Source: Lophium mytilinum (taxonomy: Eukaryota). Taken from it: a stretch of DNA of 64,000 nucleotides. The position numbers and the translations under genes are program-made. The stretch covers positions 1,372,961-1,436,960 of the forward strand of contig MU004190.1 in assembly GCA_010093605.1 (NCBI GenBank), read 5' to 3'. Under the pieces are notes generated by a model. It searched no databases. It saw nothing but the letters and a program-made list of their open reading frames with translations, and was not told the origin of the DNA. This document shows positions 11,761 through 44,200 of this stretch, one piece after another; position 1 is the first letter of the stretch; each line of letters begins with the position of its first letter.

Positions 11761-13515
11761 ATGCCCGTTCATGAGAGCCCATGCGTTCACTATGTCAGCT
11801 CAAGTAAGAACATCCTGATTTTAAAGAGCGCAGCTTACGTAAAACAGCAAAGTGTGCTGGACCGCCTGAGATCAGCAGAAGCGACCATTGAAAGAATTCT
11901 AAAATTGTGTAGAGTCCCGTCAATATCGATTGGCATATTACATAATGGAGCAAAAATCTACACGAAAAGTTTCGGATACCGCGACATGGAGAAGCAGCTC
12001 AGCGCCGATGAGGATAGTCAGTACATGCTTGCATCAGTGTCTAAAAATTTCCTTGTAGCTGCAATCGGCATTCTCGTTAGCGCTGGCAAAATGAAGTGGA
12101 CGGACCCAATCCGGCTACATGTTCCGGATTTCAACCCTGTTGGCGACCGACGTATAGGGAAGCATGCGACCTTCACTCAGATCCTGCGGCATTCAGGAGG
12201 CCTTTCGAATCCAGTGGTTTCGGTGCTAGGGCCTAAGGGCACCGTCGTACTTCAGTCAGAGGATTTCATGGAACTCGCCAATACGAGTCCGACAGGTAAC
12301 GACAAAAGTCAATACTATGAGCAAACCTGGGAGTACAGCAACGTAGGGTACGGTGTCGTCGCTCTTGCAGTTGAGAGAATATCCGGTATTCCGTATGCCG
12401 AGTTCATTCAAAAGGAGTTATTGGACCCCTTAAAACTAAACCGAACTGTCGTAACCGAGGAAGGTTCTAAAAGCGACGATAACGTGGCCTATCCTTATGC
12501 TCAATTGGACGACGGTTCTTGGACGAGACTGTCGCACGAGTGGACTTCCGAAAAAAACACTCCAATCCTTGCGGCATTTGGCAAACGAAGCTCTGTGAAC
12601 GACTTGCTACTGTGGTGTGCGGCGATAATGGAGGCGGAAGACCCTGAGAAGAAAGACGAGCATCTTGGAATACTCTCTGATATCGAAAGAAATCCTTTGA
12701 AACAGATGCGAACGATAAGGTGGGGCCACTGGACTCGGCCACATAAAGATAAATTCCAGAATCAATCTGAATATTGCTTAGGATGGTTCCGTGCAGTAAT
12801 GCCATCTTGCCAGGTCTCATGGGGCTCCTATAACACTCCCTTTGACGACGAACCAGACTTATTCGAGTACATTCTGGGAGTGGATTCGCCAAAGAGATTA
12901 GACATCAAGCACACGGGTTTGGGAGCCGGCGTCTCCGTCTCGGTTCACACCTTTCCAGAAAGCCGCAGCGCTGTGGTTGCACTCAGCAATGGACTGAACG
13001 TTGGTGACGCGAGTGATTTTGCAACGCAGATTCTCATTCAGGAGCTCTTCGACCTTCAGCCGCGTATAGACTTTCTACCTCTAGTAGAGCGCGAAGTCGG
13101 GAAGCGCGGTAGAGAATTCGAGGAGACGATAATGAAAGGATGGCACGAACACCGAGATACTTCAGTCGCGGAAAAACCGCACGTGGAATTCGCTGGAGAC
13201 TATAGAGGTCTTGGCATAACGTTGTCAGTCCGACTGAGCGAAGATACGACCAGATTAGAGCTAGTATTCAACGGCCGCGAAGATATTTGCCAGCCTTTGG
13301 AATACTACAACATTGACAAGTATTCATTCATGCCAACAACACGAGACGAATGGTTAAGAGGAGCTTGGCTGGACTGGGACTACTACATGGTTGGGATTCT
13401 TAATTTTCATCGCAACGAGAGCGACGATGTGGATTCACTTTACTGGCAATGGGAGCGGCCGTCACCGGCAACACGGTTCGAAAAGTTAGGGAAAGAGCTC
13501 CTTTTAAGCCAGTAG
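11761..13515 (+). CDS. Beta-lactamase/transpeptidase-like (AmpC-type) serine hydrolase; start uncertain
   Basis: SxxK (LASVSK), YSN (WEYSNVGY), HTG (IKHTGLG), LRHSGGL; long open frame. Confidence 0.88.
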   Translation: MPVHESPCVHYVSSSKNILILKSAAYVKQQSVLDRLRSAEATIERILKLCRVPSISIGILHNGAKIYTKSFGYRDMEKQLSADEDSQYMLASVSKNFLVAAIGILVSAGKMKWTDPIRLHVPDFNPVGDRRIGKHATFTQILRHSGGLSNPVVSVLGPKGTVVLQSEDFMELANTSPTGNDKSQYYEQTWEYSNVGYGVVALAVERISGIPYAEFIQKELLDPLKLNRTVVTEEGSKSDDNVAYPYAQLDDGSWTRLSHEWTSEKNTPILAAFGKRSSVNDLLLWCAAIMEAEDPEKKDEHLGILSDIERNPLKQMRTIRWGHWTRPHKDKFQNQSEYCLGWFRAVMPSCQVSWGSYNTPFDDEPDLFEYILGVDSPKRLDIKHTGLGAGVSVSVHTFPESRSAVVALSNGLNVGDASDFATQILIQELFDLQPRIDFLPLVEREVGKRGREFEETIMKGWHEHRDTSVAEKPHVEFAGDYRGLGITLSVRLSEDTTRLELVFNGREDICQPLEYYNIDKYSFMPTTRDEWLRGAWLDWDYYMVGILNFHRNESDDVDSLYWQWERPSPATRFEKLGKELLLSQ

Positions 13516-27650: not shown

Positions 27651-28113
27651 TCAAATAAATTGCAAGGATTCCAAGGTCTAAGAAAGTAGTTCAAATGCAT
27701 ATAATGCGCTTCTGTAGTAATATTTCTCTACACAGTTTTTCTAGGAGGCAGAGAGTTGAGGGAAGGTGGAAGGTGGGATGGCTGACGGCGATTGAGAAAA
27801 AGGCATTGCGGGATGGAGCATCGCCACCATCTTCTTGTAGCTTAGGCTCTTTCATATCGTCTTCTCATTGGTTTCTATGCCGTTGTGGCTTCGCACGCCG
27901 GATTGCTTGTGTGGACGCCGTAGATGTTGTTCAACAACGAAAATGTGCCGACAGATCCGACTTCTTCATCCCCACTTTTGCCCTGACACGTGATCTCCAA
28001 CGTCACCTCAACACATTCTCGCTCAAAACAGCATCCTTTGACCCAAACTCTCAATCTCGCGTGTCTAGACTGTTACATTGGCACTGGCAATTTTTCATCT
28101 GTGCAGAGGCGTT

Positions 28114-28720
28114 TTCCGGCTTTTTCAGTCATGGCAAACGGACACTTCGCCGGCTTCAATCTGAATGCTGTATCTCAGGCCTGATTCAATTCATGAGCTT
28201 CGGACCAAAGCACGATAAACCCCGCTGATTTGAGTGCGCTAGGTTTTACATGGCTAATTCTGCGGGTCGCGAACGTAACATCTATGTCGCGACTTCGAAC
28301 TTCTATTCAGGGGGGTCTTCCGGCTTTTTCAGTCATGGCAAACGAACACTTCGCCGGCTTCAATCTGAATGCTGTACCCTAGGCCTGATTCAATTCATGA
28401 GCTTTGGAACAAAGCACGATAAAGCACGCTGATTTGAGTGCGCTAGGTTTTACATGGCTAATTCTGCGTGTCGCGAATGTGACATCCATGTCGCGACTTC
28501 GAACTTCTATTCGGGGGGTTCTTACTAATTTTCGGCCACAGCAAATAGAAATTCAAATTGCTTCGAAATACGTGCTATAGCCTAGGATATTTCTAATCCT
28601 GCGTGTCTCGAATGTGACATCTATATCGAGATTGCTAACATCTGCTTAGGAGGGTCTTGCTAATGTTTAAACCTTGCCAAATAAAAACTTAAACTGCTTC
28701 GATATGCGTGCTCTAGCAAA
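28114..28720. repeat. ~204-bp tandem repeat: 2 near-identical copies plus shortened degenerate copies
   Basis: tttttcagtcatggcaaacg at 28121 and 28325; gctgatttgagtgcgctaggttttacatggctaattctgcg repeated. Confidence 0.9.
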
Positions 28721-29560
28721 GGCATGTCTAATTTTCGAGCCGCTGACGTATATGCGGGGTATCACGCTAATACACAACGCGCCGGCTACAACATCCAGTC
28801 TGGAATAAACCAGTAGCAAGGGGAACCCTAGACGGTATTATGGGCGTGGAAAAGCATTACCCGAACTGCTTTAATATGAGTAATCTAGCCTATAATATGT
28901 CTAATATCGAGCCGTTAAAGTATAAGCGAATGATAACGGCAATACGCAATGCTCTAACCATTACATCTAGCCTGAAATTGATCAGTACCAGGGGGAACCC
29001 TTGACGGTATCACGCATGTGGAAAAGCAACACCCAAACTGGTTTAACATGAGTGCTCTAGCTTAGCCTATGCCTGATTCCGAGCCGTACACGTACACGTG
29101 AATCACCACCTTAATACGCAGTGCTCTAGCTCTTACATCGAACTTGAGATTAATTAGCATCAAGGGGGACCCCAAACGGTATCACGCACATGGAAATGCA
29201 TCAGATAAGGTACAACTATTTGAGTGCTATCTGAGATCATATCTAACTTCCGAGTATTTAACGTACACATAAATCATCGCGCTAATACCCACTGCTCTAG
29301 CTATTACATCGAACTTGATATTAATTAGTATGAGGGGGAACCCTAAACAGTATCACCCGTATAGAAAAGCATTAGATAGGGTAGAAGTATATAAGGAATA
29401 GCTCGCAGTATGTCTGATTCCCGAGCCATTAACGTGCACGTAAATCATCACGCTATTACACAGTGCTCCAGCTATTACATCCAACCTGAGATTCATTAGT
29501 ATCAGCGGGAACCCTAGACGGTACCACACATATAGAAAAGCATTAGATCGGGTTTCTCTA
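28720..29560. repeat. ~171-bp tandem repeat, 5 diverged copies
   Basis: Core gggAaCCCtagACGGTAt...GAAAAGCA at about 28821, 28991, 29164, 29334, 29506. Confidence 0.9.
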
Positions 29561-29639
29561 TACTGAGGTTCAAGGAAATTTTGTATGTCATTACGCTAAT
29601 TACCGGCTATGCCGCACACGCACCCGCACACGCACACGC

Positions 29640-29876
29640 ACACGCTCGCAGTACACGAAATGGGCCTATTAGGGCCCACACAAAAGCAAAGAGCCGAAAG
29701 ACCCGCACGCAAACACTGGGAATGAGCCTATTAGGGCCCAAACCCAATGCAAAGGGCCGAAAGACCCGCACGAAGCAGCCACACGCAAGGCCGAAACACA
29801 AACAAAAACAGCAAAAAAGGTCAAAAAAGAAAAGAAAATGAAGGAAATGTGACTACGCCGCACCCTGGCCACCCGT
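29640..29876 (-). other. Conserved non-coding 3' element (copy A) with an internal ~62-bp duplication and GC-rich hairpins
   Basis: Reverse complement matches 42952-43140 (gggtggccaggg..agtca.att.cctt; gtttcggcct.gcgtgtgg; tgggccctaataggcYcatt). Confidence 0.85.
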
Positions 29877-29884
29877 ACTCGTGC

Positions 29885-32008
29885 TCAATCGAGCCAGTCG
29901 TCGTCGTCGTCGGGTAGGGGGAATTCCGCCTGCGCCTCCATTACGCGTTGTGCTTCTTCGGCAGAGAGAGTGCTCAGATCCGCACTAAGATTTAGAGGAG
30001 GAGAAGTCGAGCTAGAAGCAGTCATTGTAGAGGGAGCCGTTGTTGTAGAGGAAGCCGTTGTTGGAGAGGGAGCCGTTGTTGAAGAGGGGGACGCCTTCGA
30101 CTTCGGAACCTTCGGCGCAGCTATGATTCTGGGCTTCGTGCAAACGCCTGGTAGCTTCGAGGCCTTGTTGAGCAATGGAATGACTACGTCTAGCTCGTCG
30201 TGCAGCTCTTGGGCAACGGCCTCCCGAGGTTCGGGGAGGTCACCCACTTTGTTGACAAGATCGAACAGACGATAGCGCTCCCAATTGCTCCATGCAAGCT
30301 CCGCTTCGTTCAGCGGGATCTTGTCCGCCTGGAGCAACTGCTTGGTGTCGCGGAGAATTGTCACCAGGCTCCGGCCTGCAGTACGGTAGTCTACGCCATC
30401 TCTGATCATGGTCTCGATACTCCGGCAATAGGAGGTCACACGGGTGCCTTTACGTCCGTAGTAGTCTAGATTATCATCATGTTGCTTGACTTCGGCCGTG
30501 GTGTACTGTGCAACTGTCGTACCGAACGGTTGCGACGCGCTCTGCGGTTGTGAGACCGCTGGCTGACTGAAAGCTGGCGCAATACCAGCATTCGTCTGAC
30601 TCTGTTGACCAACTGGAAGGATGGGTTGAGGGAGTGCTGAGGATTGCTGCTGCTGTTGCTGTGCTGCGGTGGCTTGGGTGGCCTGAAGAACTGGTTGTGA
30701 TACAGTCGTTTGTTGGCTGAGTTGAGGGAAGCTGAGAGAAGCCGTCGGAGGAGGCTGTTGCTGCTGCGGAGGAGGCTGTTGTTGCGGCGGAGGAGGCCGT
30801 TGTTGCTGCGCTGGCTCATCAATGTCCATTGGATCATCGAAATCCATTGGATCTTCGTGAATCATGTCAGAGGAAGCGCTATCCATATTGCTGCTAACTT
30901 GCTGAGCAGGGGGGGATTCAGAAATGGGAGGGGCAGGGGCCGGAACTGATGGAATGTTCTGCCCAGTCAATGCGAGCGCGGTGGGTGGATGTGCACCAAG
31001 ATTGGATTGCATCGTTGGATGGATCTGAAACCCTTCCGAGCCCGAGGTCGTAGTCCAGGTCCCGAACACGTGGTTGTCTGGCTTGAGAGAGCAAAGTCCA
31101 GAGGTAGAAACAGCCCTGGCATGGTGCTGGCCAAGATCTTGTAGGGCTTGCAGCAGGGGTTGGGCACGTTGGTCGTCTGCGTTGTTTGAGATGGTCTTGA
31201 AGAGTGTGTCCAGGGACTGCCATGGCCAATTCAGCCACTCTAGCTCAGCCGAGTTGAGGTCGATCAGGTCGCTCTCTAGCCTCGTGACCGCCGCCGTAAT
31301 CGCAGTGGTCAGCATGTACATCGACCAAGTACAGTCTTGGCCGCGACCGAAGCAGTTATCGAAGATGACGAGCTGTTCAAGCACATGATGCCTCTTAGCA
31401 GCGACCCAGTGCAACGACTTCACGCGATCCTTCTTCCTCTGTTGTTCACGCAGTCTCTCCCCGAGGGAGGGCACGGAGACTGGGGACGGGCCAAGAAGAG
31501 TCTGAGAGGATGGCGAGGGAGAGGCGGTGTAGCACTGCGCGCGTAGGCCCACATTGACGCTCTTCGGATACCAGCACAGCGTACCAACTACGTATCGGTT
31601 AAGGTGCCTGTAGCTATCCCAATCTATATCCTGGTTAGGCATTGATTCACCACATAGAAAAGAATCCGCGACATACCTATGTTTCCGGCGGCGTCTTGAT
31701 GGTTCATCCACTCTACGGCCTCGTTGCCGGTGAGATTGAGGATACGGCTCATCTCCATGACTAGATACATCGGGAAGGTCTGGAAAAGCCCTGACGCCTT
31801 GGGCAGTCCCATCATCGCCCAGTGAAATGCCTGCTCGAAGGTGGGTTTGACAGACTCCGTGATGCCGTAGAGGCCTCCGAACAACGAGAGCTCCTGTAAC
31901 GATGCGTTAGTCTTGACGTTGCGACAGCGCATCGGCGAGTGACCTATCGCGACGCGAAGGGGCTCGCGCATCAAAAGAGAGCCACGGGTAGGTTGCACTT
32001 ACAGTCAT
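29885..32008 (-). CDS. Orphan protein A: two copies of an unassigned ~100-aa helical domain with a Q/P-rich linker; multi-exon
   Basis: ATG ACT|gtaagt micro-exon at 32008; exon ELSLFGGLYG..PTFEQA; long ORF with DLIDLNSAELEWLNW..SGLCS and DKIPLNEAELAWSNW..LPGVCT. Confidence 0.75.
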
Positions 32009-32747
32009 TGCGACGGTGATGGCGGTGGATCGACGGAGGGAGGAGGTGTTGTGGTGCGGTAGCTGTTGGCTCGCGGTGAAGTAAGGTTGAAGTGGAGGTT
32101 ACGCAGCAGGTTGGCTATGCAGTTGATGGAGCAGGAAGCGGGTTGGAGCTGTGCAGGGTTGGAGATGGTGAGGTGGTTGTCTCGTCGACTTACGAGGTTG
32201 GTGTGTGTGGAAAGGTTTCGTTCGTCGGCGTAGAGCTGGCTGTTTATCTGTGGGCGAAGGCGGGCGCCGGGCTGCGCGGGCCGGGGGGACGGGAGGTGCA
32301 CGGCTGGAGACGGATAGCAGACGGCGTTGAGGCTGCTCGGTTCACATTCACCTGCTGCTGGTTGCACGTGATATAAAAGAGGTTGAGAGAAGGGGGTCAC
32401 GTGTCCTCCACGACTGCCACGCCAGGCCCACCATCTTATCAGCTTCGTCCTGGCTGCCGTCGAAAGTGTATATAGAAAGAGATGAAAGATTTAACATGTA
32501 ATTGTATAATGACTTACTTCTGCTATAACTTACCTTACCTTCAACGACCAGGTGTGCAAAAAGCGGAGGAAACGTCACCGAATATGGACCAATTGAGACA
32601 ACATAGAACAATCTAGGTACCTACAAACATAGGCTGGAAGTTCCTTATCAAACCACAAATGCGGTCAAAGAAACACTGCTTCTACATCACGTTCCAGTTG
32701 GGCATATGAAGACTGCAACCGTGCAAAGCGTATACTAATGTGTCAGG

Positions 32748-33200
32748 AGTCTACACACACGAAAATGGCATTGCTTATGCTGCAATTTTGCTCTCTCGAT
32801 AGCACTGTCAGGAGTAGCCTCGCGGGCTGTTAGCCGGTTGGTCAAACAGCAGCCTGATTTCCACCGCACCGACGTCTCCACCTTGACGCGAGTCTCAAAG
32901 AGTCTACACACACGACATGGCATTGCTTACGCTTCATTCTTGCTCTCTCGATAGCACTGTCAGGAGTGGCCCCGCGGGCTGGTAGCCGGCTGGTCAAACA
33001 GCAGCCTGATTTCCACTGCACCGACGTCTCCACCTTGTTGCGAGTCTCAAAGAATCTAGACACACGACATGGCATTGCTTGCGCTTCCTTCTTGCTCTCT
33101 CGATAGCACTGTCAGGGGTGGCCCCGCGGGCTAGTAGTCGGCTGGTCAAACAGCAGCCTGATTTCTACTGTATCAACGTCCACATCTTGTTGCGAGTCTC
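32748..33200. repeat. ~152-bp tandem repeat, 3 copies
   Basis: gtcaaacagcagcctgattt at 32841, 32993, 33145; gctctctcgatagcactgtcagg three times. Confidence 0.93.
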
Positions 33201-34890
33201 GAAGACCCATCAGGGTACCTCATACAGTGGCAAGTATCTCTAATTTCTTTTGCTTAAAATGTCATGCTAAATCGGACTCCGTGGCTCCCGCACTCACCGA
33301 TGAAGCAGCTTCAGCACGCTGAATCGTTTCTTGTCCCGGAGACTTGCTATATTGACGCCGTCCCTCAAAGTGAGACCCCTATCATGGCTCTACCTTGTTC
33401 CTTGGGGACAACACGGAACTAGGGCTGCATCACGCGGAATGCGATCCACAAGTGGTGCATTTTGCGATGGGGTTTTGAGCCTATCTTCGCAAAATAAAGG
33501 CGCCTGAGGAAGTAAGAGGGCCTGTGAGGCCGACTGGAAGGGGGGGGGCCGCAGAGTAGAACTTTCTCCAGGGCATCTATATATGCGTAAAGAGCTGAAG
33601 TTGAGAGGTCACGATAAAAGGATGAGACGCGACGAAAGCAAAGATGCGTGTCGTCTAGAGCGCCGCGGAGTTAGTCCCACCCCTATTCCGAGTCTAGTCC
33701 AAACGCGGTCTAATGCCCTAAGCTAGTGGTCGCCTACCAAACTAGTCTATTAAGGTACTGTACTGTCGTACAAAGGTAACGTCGCAATATCGTCTGATGT
33801 GCTCGGGGTCATAATGATCAATGCATTTGCATGCACACGAAGGACTCACGAGACATCTGACAGGACCAAATTGAAGTTGTCATCATGCAATGTCGTAGTC
33901 TTGATGCGGTCCGTATGCTCATAAGGCTGGAGTAGCAAAGGCCGAATGTAGATGCCGCTCATCTAGCGTACAGGGCTGGGGGCCCAAGAATAGCGGCAAA
34001 GGGGGGGAGCAGCCTCAATCCATGCCGCCAATCAAGATTCGGTCCGTTGATTTAAAAGCTTAGCTTTCCAACCCGCCACTTCGGTGGCGCCACAGCTGAC
34101 AGTTCATTTCGCCCCACCGCAAGAGACTGGGGAATTTGCTTCTCGAATATCTCTCTATCCACCGTTGGTCATTAACGCCGTCAGCCCGCCATGAGCCCAA
34201 GAATATGTACCTACAAAGAAGCACTGCCTAGCAAACAACTGCTAGGTATCGTTCATGATCCTCCGTCTTGCGATCTATCCTCCAGCCGGAGATCGATCCC
34301 CCAGCTTACTATTGATCTTTCAGCGTCACTATTGGTCCTACCGGCTACGGTTGCGCCTTTCTCGGCTTCGGCTACCGCTACCTCAGCGCGCACTTGAGGA
34401 TGTACGGTGTGAGAGTGGCATTACTCCTGACTGGGGAGCCACTGGCGGGGGGCCTTGAAGATGCTTAGCCTCCTCCTCAACCTATCATGGAGCGTTATCT
34501 CGTCAGGCCGCCCGGATGTTCTCGCCGATAGTGTAAACAGGCATTTATATGAAGACGCCTGATCCTAATTGGCGATGTTCTGACAAGCGGTATCCTATCC
34601 TGGAGCAGGTGCCTAGGTATAGGGCTCCTAGTGCTAGATCTTCATTTCTCGTGGTGGCTTAGCAGTGATCTTCCGTTCCTATGCGGGTGGGTTGCACTAT
34701 GCAGAGCCTCTTGCGTCAAGGGTATGGCCTGTTCGTCGATGGGGGCTGTACGTCTCTAAATCTTACGTATGAGTATATAGCTGTGAAGAATCCCTATCAA
34801 AGTATTTGGCCATCACATCATTCCAACTCATAATCTCCTATCTCGTCTACCTTTTCCTTCAGACGTTCACTATCCAAGCAACCGTTTACA

Positions 34891-38861: not shown

Positions 38862-41800
38862 ATGGTCGTAAGTGAACCCCCCATCCGCCCTAGTCGCCAC
38901 CCGCTATGATCTCCTCCTTCGCCTCGCGACTATGTGCTCAAGGAAACGAATACTAACTCGACCTTGTAGTACTCCTACGGTCGCTCCATGGACCACAAGA
39001 ACCCTACGCTCGAACAATACTTTGGATTAGGGCCGAAGACCACTTGGGAGCAGGCGCGCCTGCTCGCCAACGATGGTATCAGAGACTACAGCTTCTCTGA
39101 CGACCATTACCTGGCGCTGGTCATGGCCAAGACGTTGGATCGCGATAGTAAGAGTATCTGGCGCGAACACGACCTAAGGAAGTCTATCGTCTTGCATCGT
39201 GACGCGGGATACGACGTGAGCGCCATCGCTACTCGACACAATGGTAGGCCAGAGACCCCTCTCCATGCTCATTGTATTTCTCTAATAAAGAAAAGTGACC
39301 GAGGAGGACGTCCGATCCGTCTACGCCTGCCCGGGAATTGCAACAACCAATGGTAAGTCATGCCATCTCCTCTCTCAATTCAAAACAACTCGGTCGTAAG
39401 TCTGCGCACATGGATTCACCACTGCTTGGCTCGCGCCTTGATCACTCGCCACCACTGTAAGGGGTGGCCTAGCTGTACAGTGACCAGTCGGTCAAGAGGC
39501 ATCCCAATTTGCACTGCTTGAACATCAACATCGTTCTTCGAATTTGAGACCCGGTCAGGGTACACCAAGCAGTAGCGAACGAGTGTCCGCAGACTTTTCG
39601 CCTGTCTCTGATCTCTCCGCTCCAGCACATTCGTACTAACTCTCGAGCGATTTAGGTGGTCTCGCAGTCGATCCCATCGGGCATCGCCCAAATCCACACG
39701 GATCTTCCCCATATCCGCCCGCTACGACGCCAATGCAGCCGTCCGACCCGCCCTCACCCTCGCCCACTCAGCCTGCCATGCAAGACCTTGGAAGTATGGG
39801 GCGTCATAAAGTGACCAGGGATGAGGAACCACCCGTCGGCCCAACTGGACAGTCGCTCGGACTCCAAGCTTCCGTAGATGGTTTGGGTAAGTTCTATTCA
39901 CCTATACTACCAGCTAGCGCCTTCTAACGCTATATGATCAGGATATACAGCGGCACTTGGCCAAGCGCAGAGGTCTAAACAGGACAAGAAAGACCACAAG
40001 ACACTCCTAAAAGGCCTAAAGGAGAAGAAAGGCTGGCTCGAAGAACGTCTTGGACTCTTCGTTAAGATGATGAGTCAGAAGAGTGATTGCAGCAATGTTG
40101 TGCATGAGCTGTACGGCTTGTTCGAGAGGGTCAACGGGTACTTCGAAAAAGACCCGATTCCGCTCAATGCGGACGATATTGACTGGATAGGCTGGCCCGT
40201 CGAGGATCTAGACGGTTACTTCAAGGTGTTACTAGAGGCGGCGCAGTCAGGGTGTCGCTGGGTTGAACCGGCTGCTCTAGAGCTACAAAAGCTGGGAGGA
40301 TATCTCAACACAGCGCAGACTACCCCTGGCGTTTGTTCTCTCCGCGAGGGAGCCCTGCCGTCCCTCGGATCCTATCCGACACAGGCTGCGCAACAAGCCC
40401 CAATCGCCCAACCTCCCTCGGTTCTGAACAGCTCACAATCGTCGTCAAGTACGAATATCTTCGGGTTTCTGGCCAAGCCACAGCATGCGCCCTCAGTCCT
40501 GCAAACTTCGCAGCCAGCGCCCGCCTCCAATCCCTTCGTCAATCTGACGAATCCGCAGAATGCTCTTTTGTCGTCTATGCTGGAGCAGCAACCGGCACAT
40601 TGCCCCGATACCATGGAGGGCATTGACACAACGCCCCATTTCCCCGACCACAACAGCCGCTTGAAGTGGGTCCAAGATACACACCAGGAGGTCATGGTCG
40701 AGGCGAGCAAGCTGTATGACGCGCTCGGCACGACCGGAGGATGCGAAGCTCAACTGAGTCGTCCGAAGGAGCTGTTTGACCAAGTCAGCAGCGCTCTCGA
40801 GGGAGACACCGTTCCGATGAACAACGGCGAGCTCGCATGGATCAGGTGGGATACCAACTCTCTCCAACTCTTGCTGAACAAGATGTTATCCATTGCGGCA
40901 CCCCGCTCGCAGGTCTTCTGCGACACTGGAAGTGCCCTTGAAATGCTCTTGGCGCGTCTGGAGCAAGCTTCTAGAACCCCAGGTATCTGCTCGATGGGAG
41001 GCGGCCCGCAGCCACCACAGGGAGCTCCTAGCACTTTCGGACAGCCCTCGCAGCAGCCACAGGCTGCGCAGAACTCGCCCTTCTCCAACCCGCCTTCAGG
41101 TCAATTGGGGTCTTCGCCGTTTGGTTCTTCTGCCTTTGGACAGCCCTCACAGCAGCCACAAGCTGCTCAAATCTCGCCCTTTGCCAATCTGAGGTCAGGT
41201 CCCCTGGGCTCTTCTCCATTTGGACAGCAGACCCAGCAGCAACCGTCATCAGTGGCTCAATCTGCATCCCCATTTGGCGGACTGGGTCAATCCAACACCA
41301 GTCCTTCCCCCTTCGGCCCATCGATGGCCCCCCAGCAGCCGAGCGTGTTCCAACAGACTCAGCAGCAACCGTCATCGATGGTTCAACCCGCGAACCCATT
41401 TGGCGGACTGGGTCTAACCAATGCCGCTCCTTCACCATTTGGTCAAGCAACAGCCTCGCAGCAGTCGAGCGGATTCCAGCTGCACTCCAAGCAAATCTCG
41501 CCGGAGGATGCCCACAAGGCATTCCTCGACTACGCGAAGCTGAAGTCCAAGGACATCAAGGACAAAAGCCAAAAGGTCATGAATGGCATTAACGACTGCA
41601 AGCCATATAGCTCGGCACTCCGCAACCTGTTGACTTACCTTCAGGACTGCAGGAAAAGGCTTGTCGACGACCCGACACCGCTCAACAAGGGTGACGTTAA
41701 ATACATTCGCTGGAACATCGACGATCTCCTAACTTTGGGCCGGGGTCTCCAAGACTTCGGTGATAAAAGCGATGCCAATGTCGGAAAGACGCTGAGTGAA

Positions 41801-42889
41801 CTCTCTCAGCTCATTCCACGGTTGCAAACCGCGCGCCAGACGCCAGGCGTGTCTGTCCTAGCATCGCAGCGCGCGCCGACGCAGCCAAGCTCCTCCCACG
41901 TATCAGGGAGCCTTCCACCTCGCAATGCCGGACAGCCGTTTTCCAGGATGGGAGCCTCTGCGGCGCCTTCGAGCAGCCTCCGTAACGCGCCGCCCCTTAG
42001 CAACACGCCTTCTCCCTTCCCCCAGCCGACATCTTCTGGTGGTCCTCCCAGGAACTTTGGACAAGGCTTCAACATGCAGGGCATGGCGGCACAGAGTGGG
42101 CAGGGTTCCACCCCGAGCCTGGGCAATATGCCGGCTCTTGGGAGCAAGCCCACTCGTAGCTTGCGCGACATGCCCGCTCTCTCTTCAGAGTAGTACGAAC
42201 TGTAAGTCAGCCGCTTTTTTCAACTCTCGTTCTTCTTCGACTCCTAGGATTGTAGCTAAGACTAGTAACAGTTCCTTGAGTCTATCGCCGACGCGGAGTG
42301 CGCTGGCGGAGGGGAGTGTGAGTGCGCAGAATGAACCCAATCAAGTTTCAAAAAGTCGGAGCGCCTTAGGCGCACCATAGCCGAAACAGAAAACCCAAAA
42401 ACACAGCAAAAGCACCCCAAAAAAACAGCAAAAGCAGAAAACCCAAAAACAGCAACCAATTGCAAGTCTATCCAGGGGAGCACCGTCATCGAAGGGAAAA
42501 TCGATTGCTCCACCTCCTACACCGAAATTGAATGCACCGAAGGAGGGTTCCGTGCGGAAGACCGTCGTTGACGAGGATTACAACGATCGTACACCAGACG
42601 GAGATGCTTTGGCCGAGGCTATGAAAAAAATGGGGGTGAAAGAAGCGAAGAAGGCGCCAAAGAAGGTGCTAGAAAAGGCGCCAATGAAGGCACCAGATAC
42701 AGATGGGTTAACTGCGAGCATGAACAACGTGGCGGTCAAGCCCCTATATGTCGCGAAAGGGGAGCTCGTGCAGCCTCACGAGCTGAAGAAGCGCGAACGC
42801 AAGCCTGCTTTCAATGTGAAATTGGTATGTCATCCGCGGTTGTATTGTAGGGTTTCCATTCTAACTTCACATAGCTTGGTGCGAGTTAA
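38862..42889 (+). CDS. Orphan protein B, paralog of A: three copies of the same domain, an FG-rich linker and a Lys-rich tail; in-frame TAG at 42191-42193
   Basis: ATG GTC|gtaagt micro-exon; TTWEQA exon; DPIPLNADDIDWIGW..TPGVCS, DTVPMNNGELAWIRW..TPGICS, DPTPLNKGDVKYIRW..TPGVSV; downstream exons 42272-42317, 42381-42824 and 42875-42889 splice in phase. Confidence 0.7.
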
Positions 42890-42951
42890 GGCCGCGTAGG
42901 CATCTGGATGGCCTCGATGGGCTTCAATTAGATAGAGCGCGAGGGCAAAAA

Positions 42952-43140
42952 GGGGTGGCCAGGGCGAGGGGCAGTCATATTCCCTTTCCTTTCTTTTTCC
43001 CTTCTTTACTTTTCTGTCTTTTGGTGCTGCGTTCTATTGCGTTTCGGCCTCGCGTGTGGTAGGGGGAGGCGTGCGGCTCTAAGGGCCTTGTGTGTTATAT
43101 GGGCCCTAATAGGCTCATTTCGAGTATTGCGAGTGTGTGT
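42952..43140 (+). other. Conserved non-coding 3' element (copy B)
   Basis: Inverted homolog of 29640-29876. Confidence 0.85.
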
Positions 43141-43254
43141 CCCTTTTGTGCATCGTGTCCCTATTTGGGCTCGATGAGAGTACTGCGAGCGGGTGCGGCA
43201 TGGCGGAATACTGGCGTTGCGAGATACCCAATGATTATGAACCACAAAATTGCT

Positions 43255-44200
43255 ACAAACTATCCATTGCTTTTCCACATACGTGATACTGTCTAGAGTT
43301 CCCCCTGATCCCACTTGATTTTAAGCCGATGTAATAGCTAGAGCGTTGTGAAATAGATGGTGGTCAATCTACATGCGCCCTAGATCCGTTTCTCCAAAAC
43401 CCCAGGGTATTGGAAATCACAGCTCTCAAGTTTAAGCTTTCGATCTGTTGCATTGATACTATCATGACGCCGTTTGAGGTACTCCACAGCATCCTTAAAA
43501 TTATGATACATTAATTTGACGGACCTCAGAAAACTGCAGGGCCACGCCCTTTGGAAGCAAAAATGTTTGTGCGGACGAACACTAAACTCTTCACTCTAGA
43601 ATCTAGGATGGTAGTGCTCATAGCCTATGAATATAGCTTCCCCTTCTACGAGAATGTCGTTGTGCTAGCACCGTCTGAAGTGCCCTAAATGATTCTTCCT
43701 AATCTGACACTCATGTTCTTGACTAACCTTATGTATTGCCGGTCAGTTTTTAGTGGTGGCAGATACTTGTATGTCAGCATGCGCTTGACTTTTTGCGCCT
43801 GATTTAGAACGTATCAGAAGTCCCAGCTCATGAATGGGGTCTTCTGTTTTACGGTATTGTCAACGTTTTAGCACCGTCTGAAGCGCCTCAGATCCTCTAT
43901 TAATATTGACAGGTACCGTTTTGCCCAGCCTTATATCTTGTCGGCCCTCTTTTGGCGATGATAGAAAAGTACGCATGGACAATCATTTAACTTCCTATTC
44001 TTGCTACAAATCGCTTATTAGGGCTGGCTTATAATCCTAGGTTCATCTTTAATGATAGTGCCGTGGTCGTATCGCCGCCAGGAGTGCCTCAACGCCCTTA
44101 CCTAAATTTATATACTGTGGCTTTGACGGACCTTATACCTCGTTGGGCCGCCTCTGGCGGTGCCAATAAGATGTGCGCCTATTCTACTTAACTTAGGGAT
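43255..44200. repeat. Degenerate ~190-202 bp tandem array (~5 units); inverted relative of the 171-bp array
   Basis: 43265-43350 is the reverse complement of the 171-bp unit; related cores at about 43275, 43466, 43667, 43870, 44071 (agcaccgtctgaag.gcc twice). Confidence 0.75.

Follow-up and report, generated by a model that had tools for sequence, protein, structure and literature searches.

Short hairpins in the 3' untranslated region (UTR) are known to act as signals in eukaryotic mRNAs, as exemplified by the histone mRNA stem-loop, the iron-responsive elements and the hairpins recognised by Smaug/Vts1. In bacteria and organelles, stabiliser hairpins are found at the 3' side of transcripts, such as the REP-type elements and the stem-loops of 3' retroregulators. 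Two systems that operate on DNA are also relevant: Helitrons end on their 3' side in CTRR, with a palindromic hairpin located 10-12 nt ahead of it, and the arms of inverted repeats can be kept alike by gene conversion, as in sex-chromosome palindromes and plastid inverted repeats. Here we describe a locus of the fungus Lophium mytilinum that resembles each of these systems in part: a non-coding block, present in two inverted copies behind two paralogous orphan genes, which contains a doubled hairpin module. The stretch of DNA that was analysed, 64 kb in length, is referred to as the window, and all positions are those of the window.

Self-comparison of the window (BLASTN, MAFFT) identified the block as a homologous non-coding region of ~450 nt. 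Its two copies lie ~13 kb apart as inverted repeats, and their orientation relative to the preceding gene is the same. The initial annotation had placed a hairpin-bearing 3' element at 29640-29876. These limits enclose the gene-proximal half of the block only: homology extends beyond 29640 to ~29450 and then, in the form of tandem 171-nt units, to 28735. The genes and the main parts of the block are as follows:

29885-32040, minus strand: gene A, orphan family (ORF list and spliced joints of data set X3; 5' limit approximate)
39938-42889, plus strand: gene B (long ORF to TAG 42191-42193)
29874 down to ~29450, minus strand: copy A of the block, directly behind the gene A stop
42953-43356, plus strand: copy B of the block, behind gene B (BLASTN/MAFFT alignment)
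42953-43229, plus strand: part of copy B inside the gene B transcript (length of X3 record 22 and bin depths)
29863-29874, minus strand: GGGTGGCCAGGG in copy A, first invariant 12-mer of the block and a 12-nt exact A/B run
42953-42964, plus strand: GGGTGGCCAGGG in copy B
29613-29645, minus strand: (GTGTGC)n microsatellite (TRF period 6, 5.5 copies)
28735-29589, minus strand: five tandem 171/172-nt units; the distal part of the block corresponds to their conserved ~95-nt core
43262-43356, plus strand: core of the single 171-nt unit behind gene B, past the end of the RNA contig

Read on the minus strand, copy A consists of GGGTGGCCAGGG after the TGA of gene A, a U-rich tract, two 63-nt units and the (GTGTGC)n run. 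The latter is found in copy A only, and the A/B alignment has a gap at the corresponding place of copy B. A U-rich tract had been noted ahead of the element; it is indeed present, with 38 T in 55 nt at 29794-29848 (minus strand), and copy B has one with 36 T in 65 nt. The 171-nt unit occurs five times in tandem behind gene A and once behind gene B. Its consensus fold is weak (-9.35 kcal/mol, with a covariation term of 0), and for this reason its consideration as a structured RNA was rejected.

Gene A ends with a TGA at 29885-29887, so that the element starts ~10 nt past the stop, as initially annotated. The gene has an uninterrupted 1.8-kb ORF (29885-31711) and introns at 31624-31676 and 31893-32001, with joints found in X3 record 18. 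Its C-terminus, ...PLPDDDDDWLD, matches that of the ortholog P0001 from Mytilinidion, ...ALPDDDDDDFWKD. Two in-frame coding minisatellites are found in gene A, at 30025-30088 (18 nt x3.6) and 30746-30810 (21 nt x3.1); at the latter, RNA depth is inflated by mapped contigs that stem from other transcripts.

The relationship between the block and the end of gene B is more complex. Copy B had been located ~60 nt past a modelled stop, and its start at 42953 is indeed 63 nt from the TAA (42887-42889); however, the long ORF of the RNA contig ends earlier, at TAG 42191-42193. Gene B has introns at 42202-42271 and 42825-42874, and splicing leaves two more open stretches in the same frame beyond that TAG, with a second in-frame TAG at 42378-42380 and the TAA at the end of the final stretch. 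The element lies therefore either 63 nt or ~760 genomic nt behind the stop, in the same transcript either way. The TAGs might be nonsense mutations, or they might be bypassed by alternative splicing; a third possibility is that the 3' UTR is spliced and very long. The first TAG is found 8 nt before intron 42202-42271. Inspection by eye indicated that it might be skipped in frame if the GT at 42190, 12 nt upstream, served as the donor, and that the second TAG might be skipped within a 63-nt GTGAGT...CCATAG stretch (42318-42380). Proteins of 80-258 aa were searched with the downstream 147-aa stretch of gene B, and no homologs were found. At 40771-40859, inside this plus-strand gene, an X3 contig of depth 3.7, with only 30 nt on the shorter side, lacks 87 nt that are bounded by CT..AC ends; this provides a weak indication of an intron in an antisense transcript.

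Genes A and B are arranged head-to-head, ~8 kb apart, and Pfam detects an M43-like peptidase (Peptidase_M43) and a GFO/IDH/MocA oxidoreductase between them. Their products are 28-35% identical over a repeated ~130-aa module (PLN..E..WI.W ... TPGVCS), of which A has two copies and B three; both proteins also have Q/P-rich and FG-like linkers of low complexity. The best BLASTN match between their coding DNAs spans 56 nt (71%, E 0.028). Neither A nor B nor the downstream stretch of gene B matched any Pfam family, and a search of the ESM Atlas with the first module of B gave no usable match. When 1.84 billion protein representatives were searched with phmmer, three proteins were retrieved: B itself (P0003) and two from Mytilinidion resinicola. 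P0001 is the ortholog of A (56% identity over 190 aa, 49% over 181 aa) and P0002 is the ortholog of B (35-36% identity). The two M. resinicola entries are BDZ99DRAFT_551300 / KAF2802474 and BDZ99DRAFT_527504 / KAF2802477; a single contig of 446,750 nt encodes both, and their accession numbers differ by three. A further protein, P0005 (81%, from a metagenome contig of 9,988 nt), hints at the existence of a close relative. Because M. resinicola has separate orthologs of A and B, the gene duplication predates the split from that genus.

In the block alignment, copies A and B agree at 276 of 398 aligned positions (69%), whereas flanks aligned by the same program show 30-46% identity. The longest exact run is the 20-mer TGGGCCCTAATAGGCTCATT (0.08 expected). 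For a duplication of this age, such identity in non-coding DNA indicates that the block is anomalously well kept. The block would either have been constrained or have been made alike again at a later time.

The differences between the copies amount to 60 transitions, 62 transversions and 55 gap columns. RIP leaves C-to-T and G-to-A transitions, mainly at CpA, and the initial annotation had considered it as a sole source of the C/U variants found in the hairpins. The A/B differences do not follow that pattern of near-exclusive transitions at CpA. Half of them are transversions, which makes RIP alone insufficient as an explanation, and both hairpin variants lie in a CpC context, neither of them in CpA.

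The hairpins themselves were examined as repeated motifs and as parts of larger units. The 18-nt hairpin TGGGCC-CTAATA-GGCYCA (TGGGCCCTAATAGGCYCA; hairpin 2) was searched in the whole window allowing up to 2 mismatches. Three matches were found, all of them exact, while none of 100 shuffled sequences contained any match. Two copies in the element and a third near 43110 had been described, and the third was located at 43100-43117. The 14-nt hairpin GGGTC-TTTC-GGCYC (GGGTCTTTCGGCYC; hairpin 1) has the two exact copies that had been reported; further matches with 2 mismatches, at 12631 and 28313, are about the chance level (shuffle mean 0.8; 4 matches reached in 2 of 100 shuffles). Both motifs reside in a 63-nt module that is doubled in tandem in the two copies of the block, the second unit of copy B being degenerate:

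29661-29678 and 29723-29740, minus strand, and 43100-43117, plus strand: exact copies of TGGGCCCTAATAGGCYCA
29691-29704 and 29754-29767, minus strand: exact copies of GGGTCTTTCGGCYC
29709-29771, minus strand: unit A1, with hairpin 1 at 29754-29767 and hairpin 2 at 29723-29740
29644-29708, minus strand: unit A2, with hairpin 1 (GGCUC variant) at 29691-29704 and hairpin 2 (perfect stem) at 29661-29678
43071-43134, plus strand: unit B1, with hairpin 1 at 43075-43087 and hairpin 2 at 43100-43117
43135-43190, plus strand: unit B2, with hairpin 1 lost and the sequence of hairpin 2 mostly lost

Tandem doubling of the 63-nt unit, together with the presence of the whole block twice in inverted orientation, explains the repetition of the motifs: it is a product of duplication, and chance is excluded as its source. 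The feature is genuine and, within the window, specific to these two genes. In unit A1, an outer stem extends the pairing of hairpin 2 to 29712-29750. Hairpin 1 of unit B1 adopts a shifted register, GGCUC-UAA-GGGCC, and unit B2 has a hairpin of different sequence at the position of hairpin 2 (CAUCG-U-GUCC-CUAUUU-GGGC-U-CGAUG, 43151-43176). Identities between units are 82% (A1/A2), 74% (A1/B1) and 78% (A2/B1), and 51-59% for each of these against B2.

Within the unit, the CUAAUA hairpin stands out as an island of conservation. Only 1 of the 18 columns of hairpin 2 (stem and loop) is variable among units A1, A2 and B1, compared with 18 of the 34 remaining columns (Fisher p 0.0007). None of the 6 loop columns varies across the three units, and the stem, the loop and the CAUU on the 3' side are all kept.

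To what extent the block is transcribed can be seen in X3, a data set of the same species labelled 'RNA?'. It contains spliced joints whose GT..AG or CT..AC ends match the orientations of the genes; as these joints are absent from two DNA runs, X3 behaves as RNA. Record 22 of X3 (1215 nt, depth 18.5) has joints 42201>42272 and 42823>42874. Its positions 357-908 align at 42272-42823, and bin depths fit one orientation only for the remainder, namely 41895-42201 plus 42874-43229. Depth per bin was 10.8 in 41675-42241, 17.5 in 42242-42808, 12.1 in 42809-43375 and 0 from 43376 onwards, and the figure of 12.1 equals 18.5 x 371/567. The record would thus end at ~43229, ~30 nt short of the 171-nt core, although a contig end cannot fix the true 3' end of the mRNA. 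Because the spliced gene B contig spans the entire hairpin module, copy B is 3'-UTR sequence. The idea of a 3'-UTR element is hence supported for copy B, up to ~43229. Around copy A, X3 gives no cover in 29201-29767 and a depth of 8.2 in 29768-30334; the gene A contigs are few, shallow (depth 4-5) and uninformative, and we infer that the copy A hairpins are likewise transcribed in an mRNA 3' UTR.

Transcription of copy B and the presence of compact local hairpins on one strand might also be viewed as marks of an independent small ncRNA gene, snoRNA-like or other, duplicated behind both genes and either processed or separately transcribed. This explanation seems very unlikely. Copy B is contiguous with a spliced mRNA, and none of the searches against Rfam provided support for the small ncRNA contemplated in the initial annotation: no match was found in 28000-30200 (copy A) at E up to 10, none in the whole window at gathering scores, and the five matches in 42700-43600 (copy B) were all far below gathering (best 21.6 bits vs 89, E 0.22). 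No box motifs were seen by eye in the element. Characteristically, the 5' region of SINEs is tRNA-like and contains A and B boxes; ARAGORN found no tRNA genes in the whole window, Rfam gave no match of the tRNA clan at E up to 10 in copy A, and the block thus does not fit a SINE or tRNA-derived retroposon.

Folding and covariation tests were performed on the hairpins, the units and the whole element. In isolation, the three good copies of hairpin 2 have free energies of -10.5, -7.5 and -7.5 kcal/mol in the sense strand and -11.9, -5.0 and -5.0 kcal/mol in the antisense strand. Hairpin 1 folds in the sense strand of the three units that possess it (-3.4, -6.4 and, in the shifted register of B1, -6.3 kcal/mol) and poorly in the antisense strand (0, -2.8 and -3.1 kcal/mol); 2 of 200 shuffles equalled the -6.3 kcal/mol of B1. 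Unit A1 folds at -31.1 kcal/mol (z -4.8, equalled by 0 of 200 shuffles) and is the only unit in which the two-hairpin fold is the MFE. The other units have z-scores of -1.12 (A2), -0.5 (B1) and -0.22 (B2), and the fold of the complete copy B is not more stable than those of its shuffles (z +0.91). Scores were more negative in a 39-mer of A1 (z -5.27), a 38-mer of A2 (z -2.36) and a 29-mer of B2 (z -3.61), the latter being a sub-window picked after folding from a 56-nt unit whose own z is -0.22. For that reason, the B2 hairpin was rejected as proof of structural selection.

When alignment columns were shuffled, alifold on three units yielded z -2.78 in the sense strand (4 of 300 shuffles as low) and -1.23 in the antisense strand (32/300). 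With four units, the antisense value (-2.72) nearly equalled the sense value (-2.89) because the sequence is palindromic. The hairpin part of the A/B alignment gave -2.21 in sense (9/300) and -0.74 in antisense. A conserved fold of the whole element was not found in the A/B alignment (sense z -0.87, 60/300; antisense -1.77), and its SCI was 0.40 vs 0.39 for shuffled alignments.

The initial annotation had also pointed out that the C/U variants give G-U pairs in the gene-sense strand and A-C mismatches in the opposite strand. The observation is correct. As an argument for an RNA structure it is, however, weak, as it concerns two transitions only (p = 0.25 for both favouring sense), and the transition in hairpin 2 is a single event that can be read equally well as U to C in unit A2. 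Furthermore, none of the 11 pairs changes on both sides in the MAFFT alignment of the four paralogous units, and all 500 shuffles of the control pair equally well. A stem-guided reading by eye does show that GGCUC/GGGCC in B1 and GGGUC/GGCCC in A differ by a change of the middle pair from G-C to C-G. Altogether, the evidence for the hairpins acting as an RNA signal is only suggestive.

A transition:transversion ratio of ~1 and 55 gap columns have the look of neutral decay, and this counts against a hairpin signal kept by selection, the reading that we favour below. A close second to it, possible if still doubtful, is that the block is a functionless flank. The flanks of the inverted paralogs would have been homogenised after duplication by past conversion or template switch and would then have decayed neutrally to 69%, the hairpins being incidental small palindromes in slippage-prone, GT-rich DNA. 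Gene conversion is common in inverted-repeat geometry, and the copies of the block are inverted and ~13 kb apart. Identity is fairly even along the block (57-79% per 40 columns) and includes the region past the contig end. There, the 171-nt core shows 74-79% similarity, comparable to that of the hairpin part, and this fits a history at the DNA level better than selection at the RNA level. The region is also prone to tandem duplication, with the 63-nt unit doubled and with the (GTGTGC)n run and the five 171-nt units in A only; the absence of a significant conserved fold of the whole element points in the same direction. A functionless flank has, however, difficulties of its own. Conversion needs starting homology, so that the flanks must have been alike already while the coding DNA had diverged past detection, and the converted tract would need to start exactly at the gene A stop codon. 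In addition, the much better conservation of hairpin 2 than of the rest of the unit would not be expected.

Conservation of the loop to the same degree as the stem suits sequence-specific recognition, and recognition might also take place on DNA. One could thus envisage that the palindrome TGGGCC-N6-GGCCCA and the 171-nt units are putative protein-binding sites, belonging to a termination or insulator element between tandem genes or serving as upstream activating repeats of an MFS gene. The A-side repeats do sit between the 3' end of gene A and the 5' end of the MFS gene, which is transcribed from the same strand, and in B the conserved 171-nt core lies past the RNA contig end. We nonetheless consider a DNA-level signal improbable. 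Hairpin 2 has U at its variable position in three of the four units, which makes for an asymmetric half-site (GGCTC); hairpin 1 is not a DNA palindrome, and its U-G pair becomes A-C on the opposite strand. Moreover, no comparable gene follows B, where no ORF of at least 90 aa is found until 44273.

The neighbourhood of the block is rich in repeats. Tandem arrays of 204 nt (x2, 92%) and 135 nt (x2, 74%) occupy 28098-28732 and have in common a 75-nt core with the palindrome GTCGCGA-N14-TCGCGAC. The MFS transporter gene lies beyond the arrays on the same strand as gene A, and the 1.7 kb that separate its 5' side from the 3' end of gene A consist entirely of these two arrays and the 171-nt array. 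A 152-nt tandem repeat is found upstream of gene A (32747-33205, three copies, 90% alike), and 39420-39576, upstream of gene B, is 67% like it, both in plus-strand orientation. Its DNA-run depth is 362 and 491, compared with 165 for single-copy DNA (2-3x), and many contigs end inside it. The 152-nt repeat belongs to a multi-copy family of this genome.

In such surroundings, the block might be viewed as an old, diverged dispersed repeat or minisatellite, or as a fragment of a non-autonomous element, that spread locally behind both genes. Identities of 60-80% with many indels are typical of old repeat families; the 204-, 135-, 171- and 152-nt arrays make the neighbourhood repeat-rich; and the 152-nt family, multi-copy, lies near the 5' sides of both genes. 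Copy number does not fit this explanation well, and we regard it as unlikely. There are two element loci only in the 64 kb, each of them directly 3' of a paralog and in the same relative orientation. A covariance model built from the four units (R1) retrieved its 4 training units only, the next match in the window having an E of 0.94. DNA-run depth in the element bins is flat, at the single-contig value of 165.3; this measure works at 80% likeness, and copies that are less alike elsewhere would be invisible to it. Outside the window, the exact 18-mer gave only two matches across a metagenome collection, both unrelated and attributable to chance (L001 and L002): one context is AT-rich and coding-like, and the other is a bacterial-looking intergenic palindrome. 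Three 13-mers of the hairpin were not found in the literature searched. The block also has neither terminal inverted repeats nor a definable target duplication, a tRNA-like part or extra depth. The proposal that the element might be an element terminus or origin received no support either: neither terminal repeats nor a target-site duplication was definable, and R1 has no further copy in the window.

The distance between the inverted arms, 13.1-14.4 kb, and the presence of sub-terminal tandem repeats at one side bring to mind the terminal inverted repeats of a mobile element of ~14 kb, or the arms of an invertible segment. This possibility is extremely remote. The arms are unequal (1.1 vs 0.4 kb), without definable tips or target duplication, and at 69% identity they are too diverged for current recombination. 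The interior genes are ordinary: the scanned interior ORFs are those of the Peptidase_M43 and GFO_IDH_MocA families, with no transposase or recombinase among the ORFs scanned with Pfam, and the flanking gene pair is also adjacent in M. resinicola. On these grounds, a TIR transposon or an invertible segment is disfavoured.

Altogether, we tentatively favour, at somewhat less than even odds, the view that a lineage-specific hairpin module acts in cis in the 3' UTR and is kept by selection, and that the rest of the block is slippage-prone flank. An ancestral orphan gene would have borne the ~450-nt block right behind its stop codon, and the block would have been duplicated with the gene and inverted. 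It would be transcribed within the mRNA 3' UTR, as observed for copy B and presumed for copy A. The CUAAUA hairpin would be a putative cis-acting RNA signal for a sequence-specific RNA-binding factor, both function and factor being conjectural, and hairpin 1 may be an accessory to it. A common post-transcriptional fate of the two paralog mRNAs might result: their 3' ends could be shielded from decay, or their stability or translation could be regulated. The U-rich tract, the GU repeats and the 171-nt unit would be flank DNA, prone to slippage, that was carried along; past gene conversion between the two inverted blocks has perhaps maintained its similarity.

A broader formulation, which we regard as doubtful, is that a lineage-restricted module made of the two hairpins, a tetraloop hairpin that forms in the sense strand only and the CUAAUA-loop hairpin, has been under selection in both 3' UTRs while the coding sequences of the old head-to-head pair diverged to ~30% identity, and that it represents a new fungal regulatory motif without a counterpart in Rfam. 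An equally speculative corollary is that the two-hairpin module might mark the mRNAs of an FG/Q-rich repeat-protein family through a putative RNA-binding factor. If the hairpin module is functional, it would be a compact, testable post-transcriptional signal that has outlived the coding similarity of its genes, and it would provide a handle on an otherwise unannotated orphan gene pair. If the block is only a homogenised flank, it would be a small case of concerted evolution in the non-coding DNA of inverted paralogs. Either reading is of modest practical value, as two genes of one fungal lineage are involved.

Among the known systems, Helitron termini share with the block a GC-rich palindrome of 16-20 nt close behind a gene. 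However, no CTRR is found within ~12 nt of the three copies of hairpin 2 (followed by TTTCGTGTACTGCG, TTCCCAGTGTTTGC and TTTCGAGTATTGCG), homology continues ~250 nt past the hairpins, only two copies exist, and the scanned ORFs of the window include no Rep/helicase. The block thus does not fit a Helitron terminus. As in inverted-repeat arms kept alike by conversion, the copies are inverted, ~13 kb apart, and more alike than the age of the duplication predicts. Unlike such arms, they are short (0.4-1.1 kb) and their similarity is confined to non-coding 3' flanks; in addition, an identity of 69% indicates that no recent conversion has taken place.

Tandem GC-rich hairpins shortly before the 3' end of an mRNA are also a trait of the bacterial and organellar stabilisers, and here too they could block 3'-to-5' decay. 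The difference is that the mRNA is in this case eukaryotic, nuclear, spliced and presumably polyadenylated, and that the hairpins, instead of being terminal, lie ~50-160 nt before the point where the contig is inferred to end. Compared with the 3'-UTR signals of eukaryotes, the module is unusual in having no Rfam match, in presenting a CUAAUA loop on a stem of 6-7 bp and in being doubled; furthermore, it is known here from two genes of one orphan family, and its binding factor is putative. Like those signals, however, it is a short 3'-UTR hairpin with a sequence-conserved loop, common to paralogs whose coding sequences have diverged, and its stem, its loop and the neighbouring bases have all been kept.
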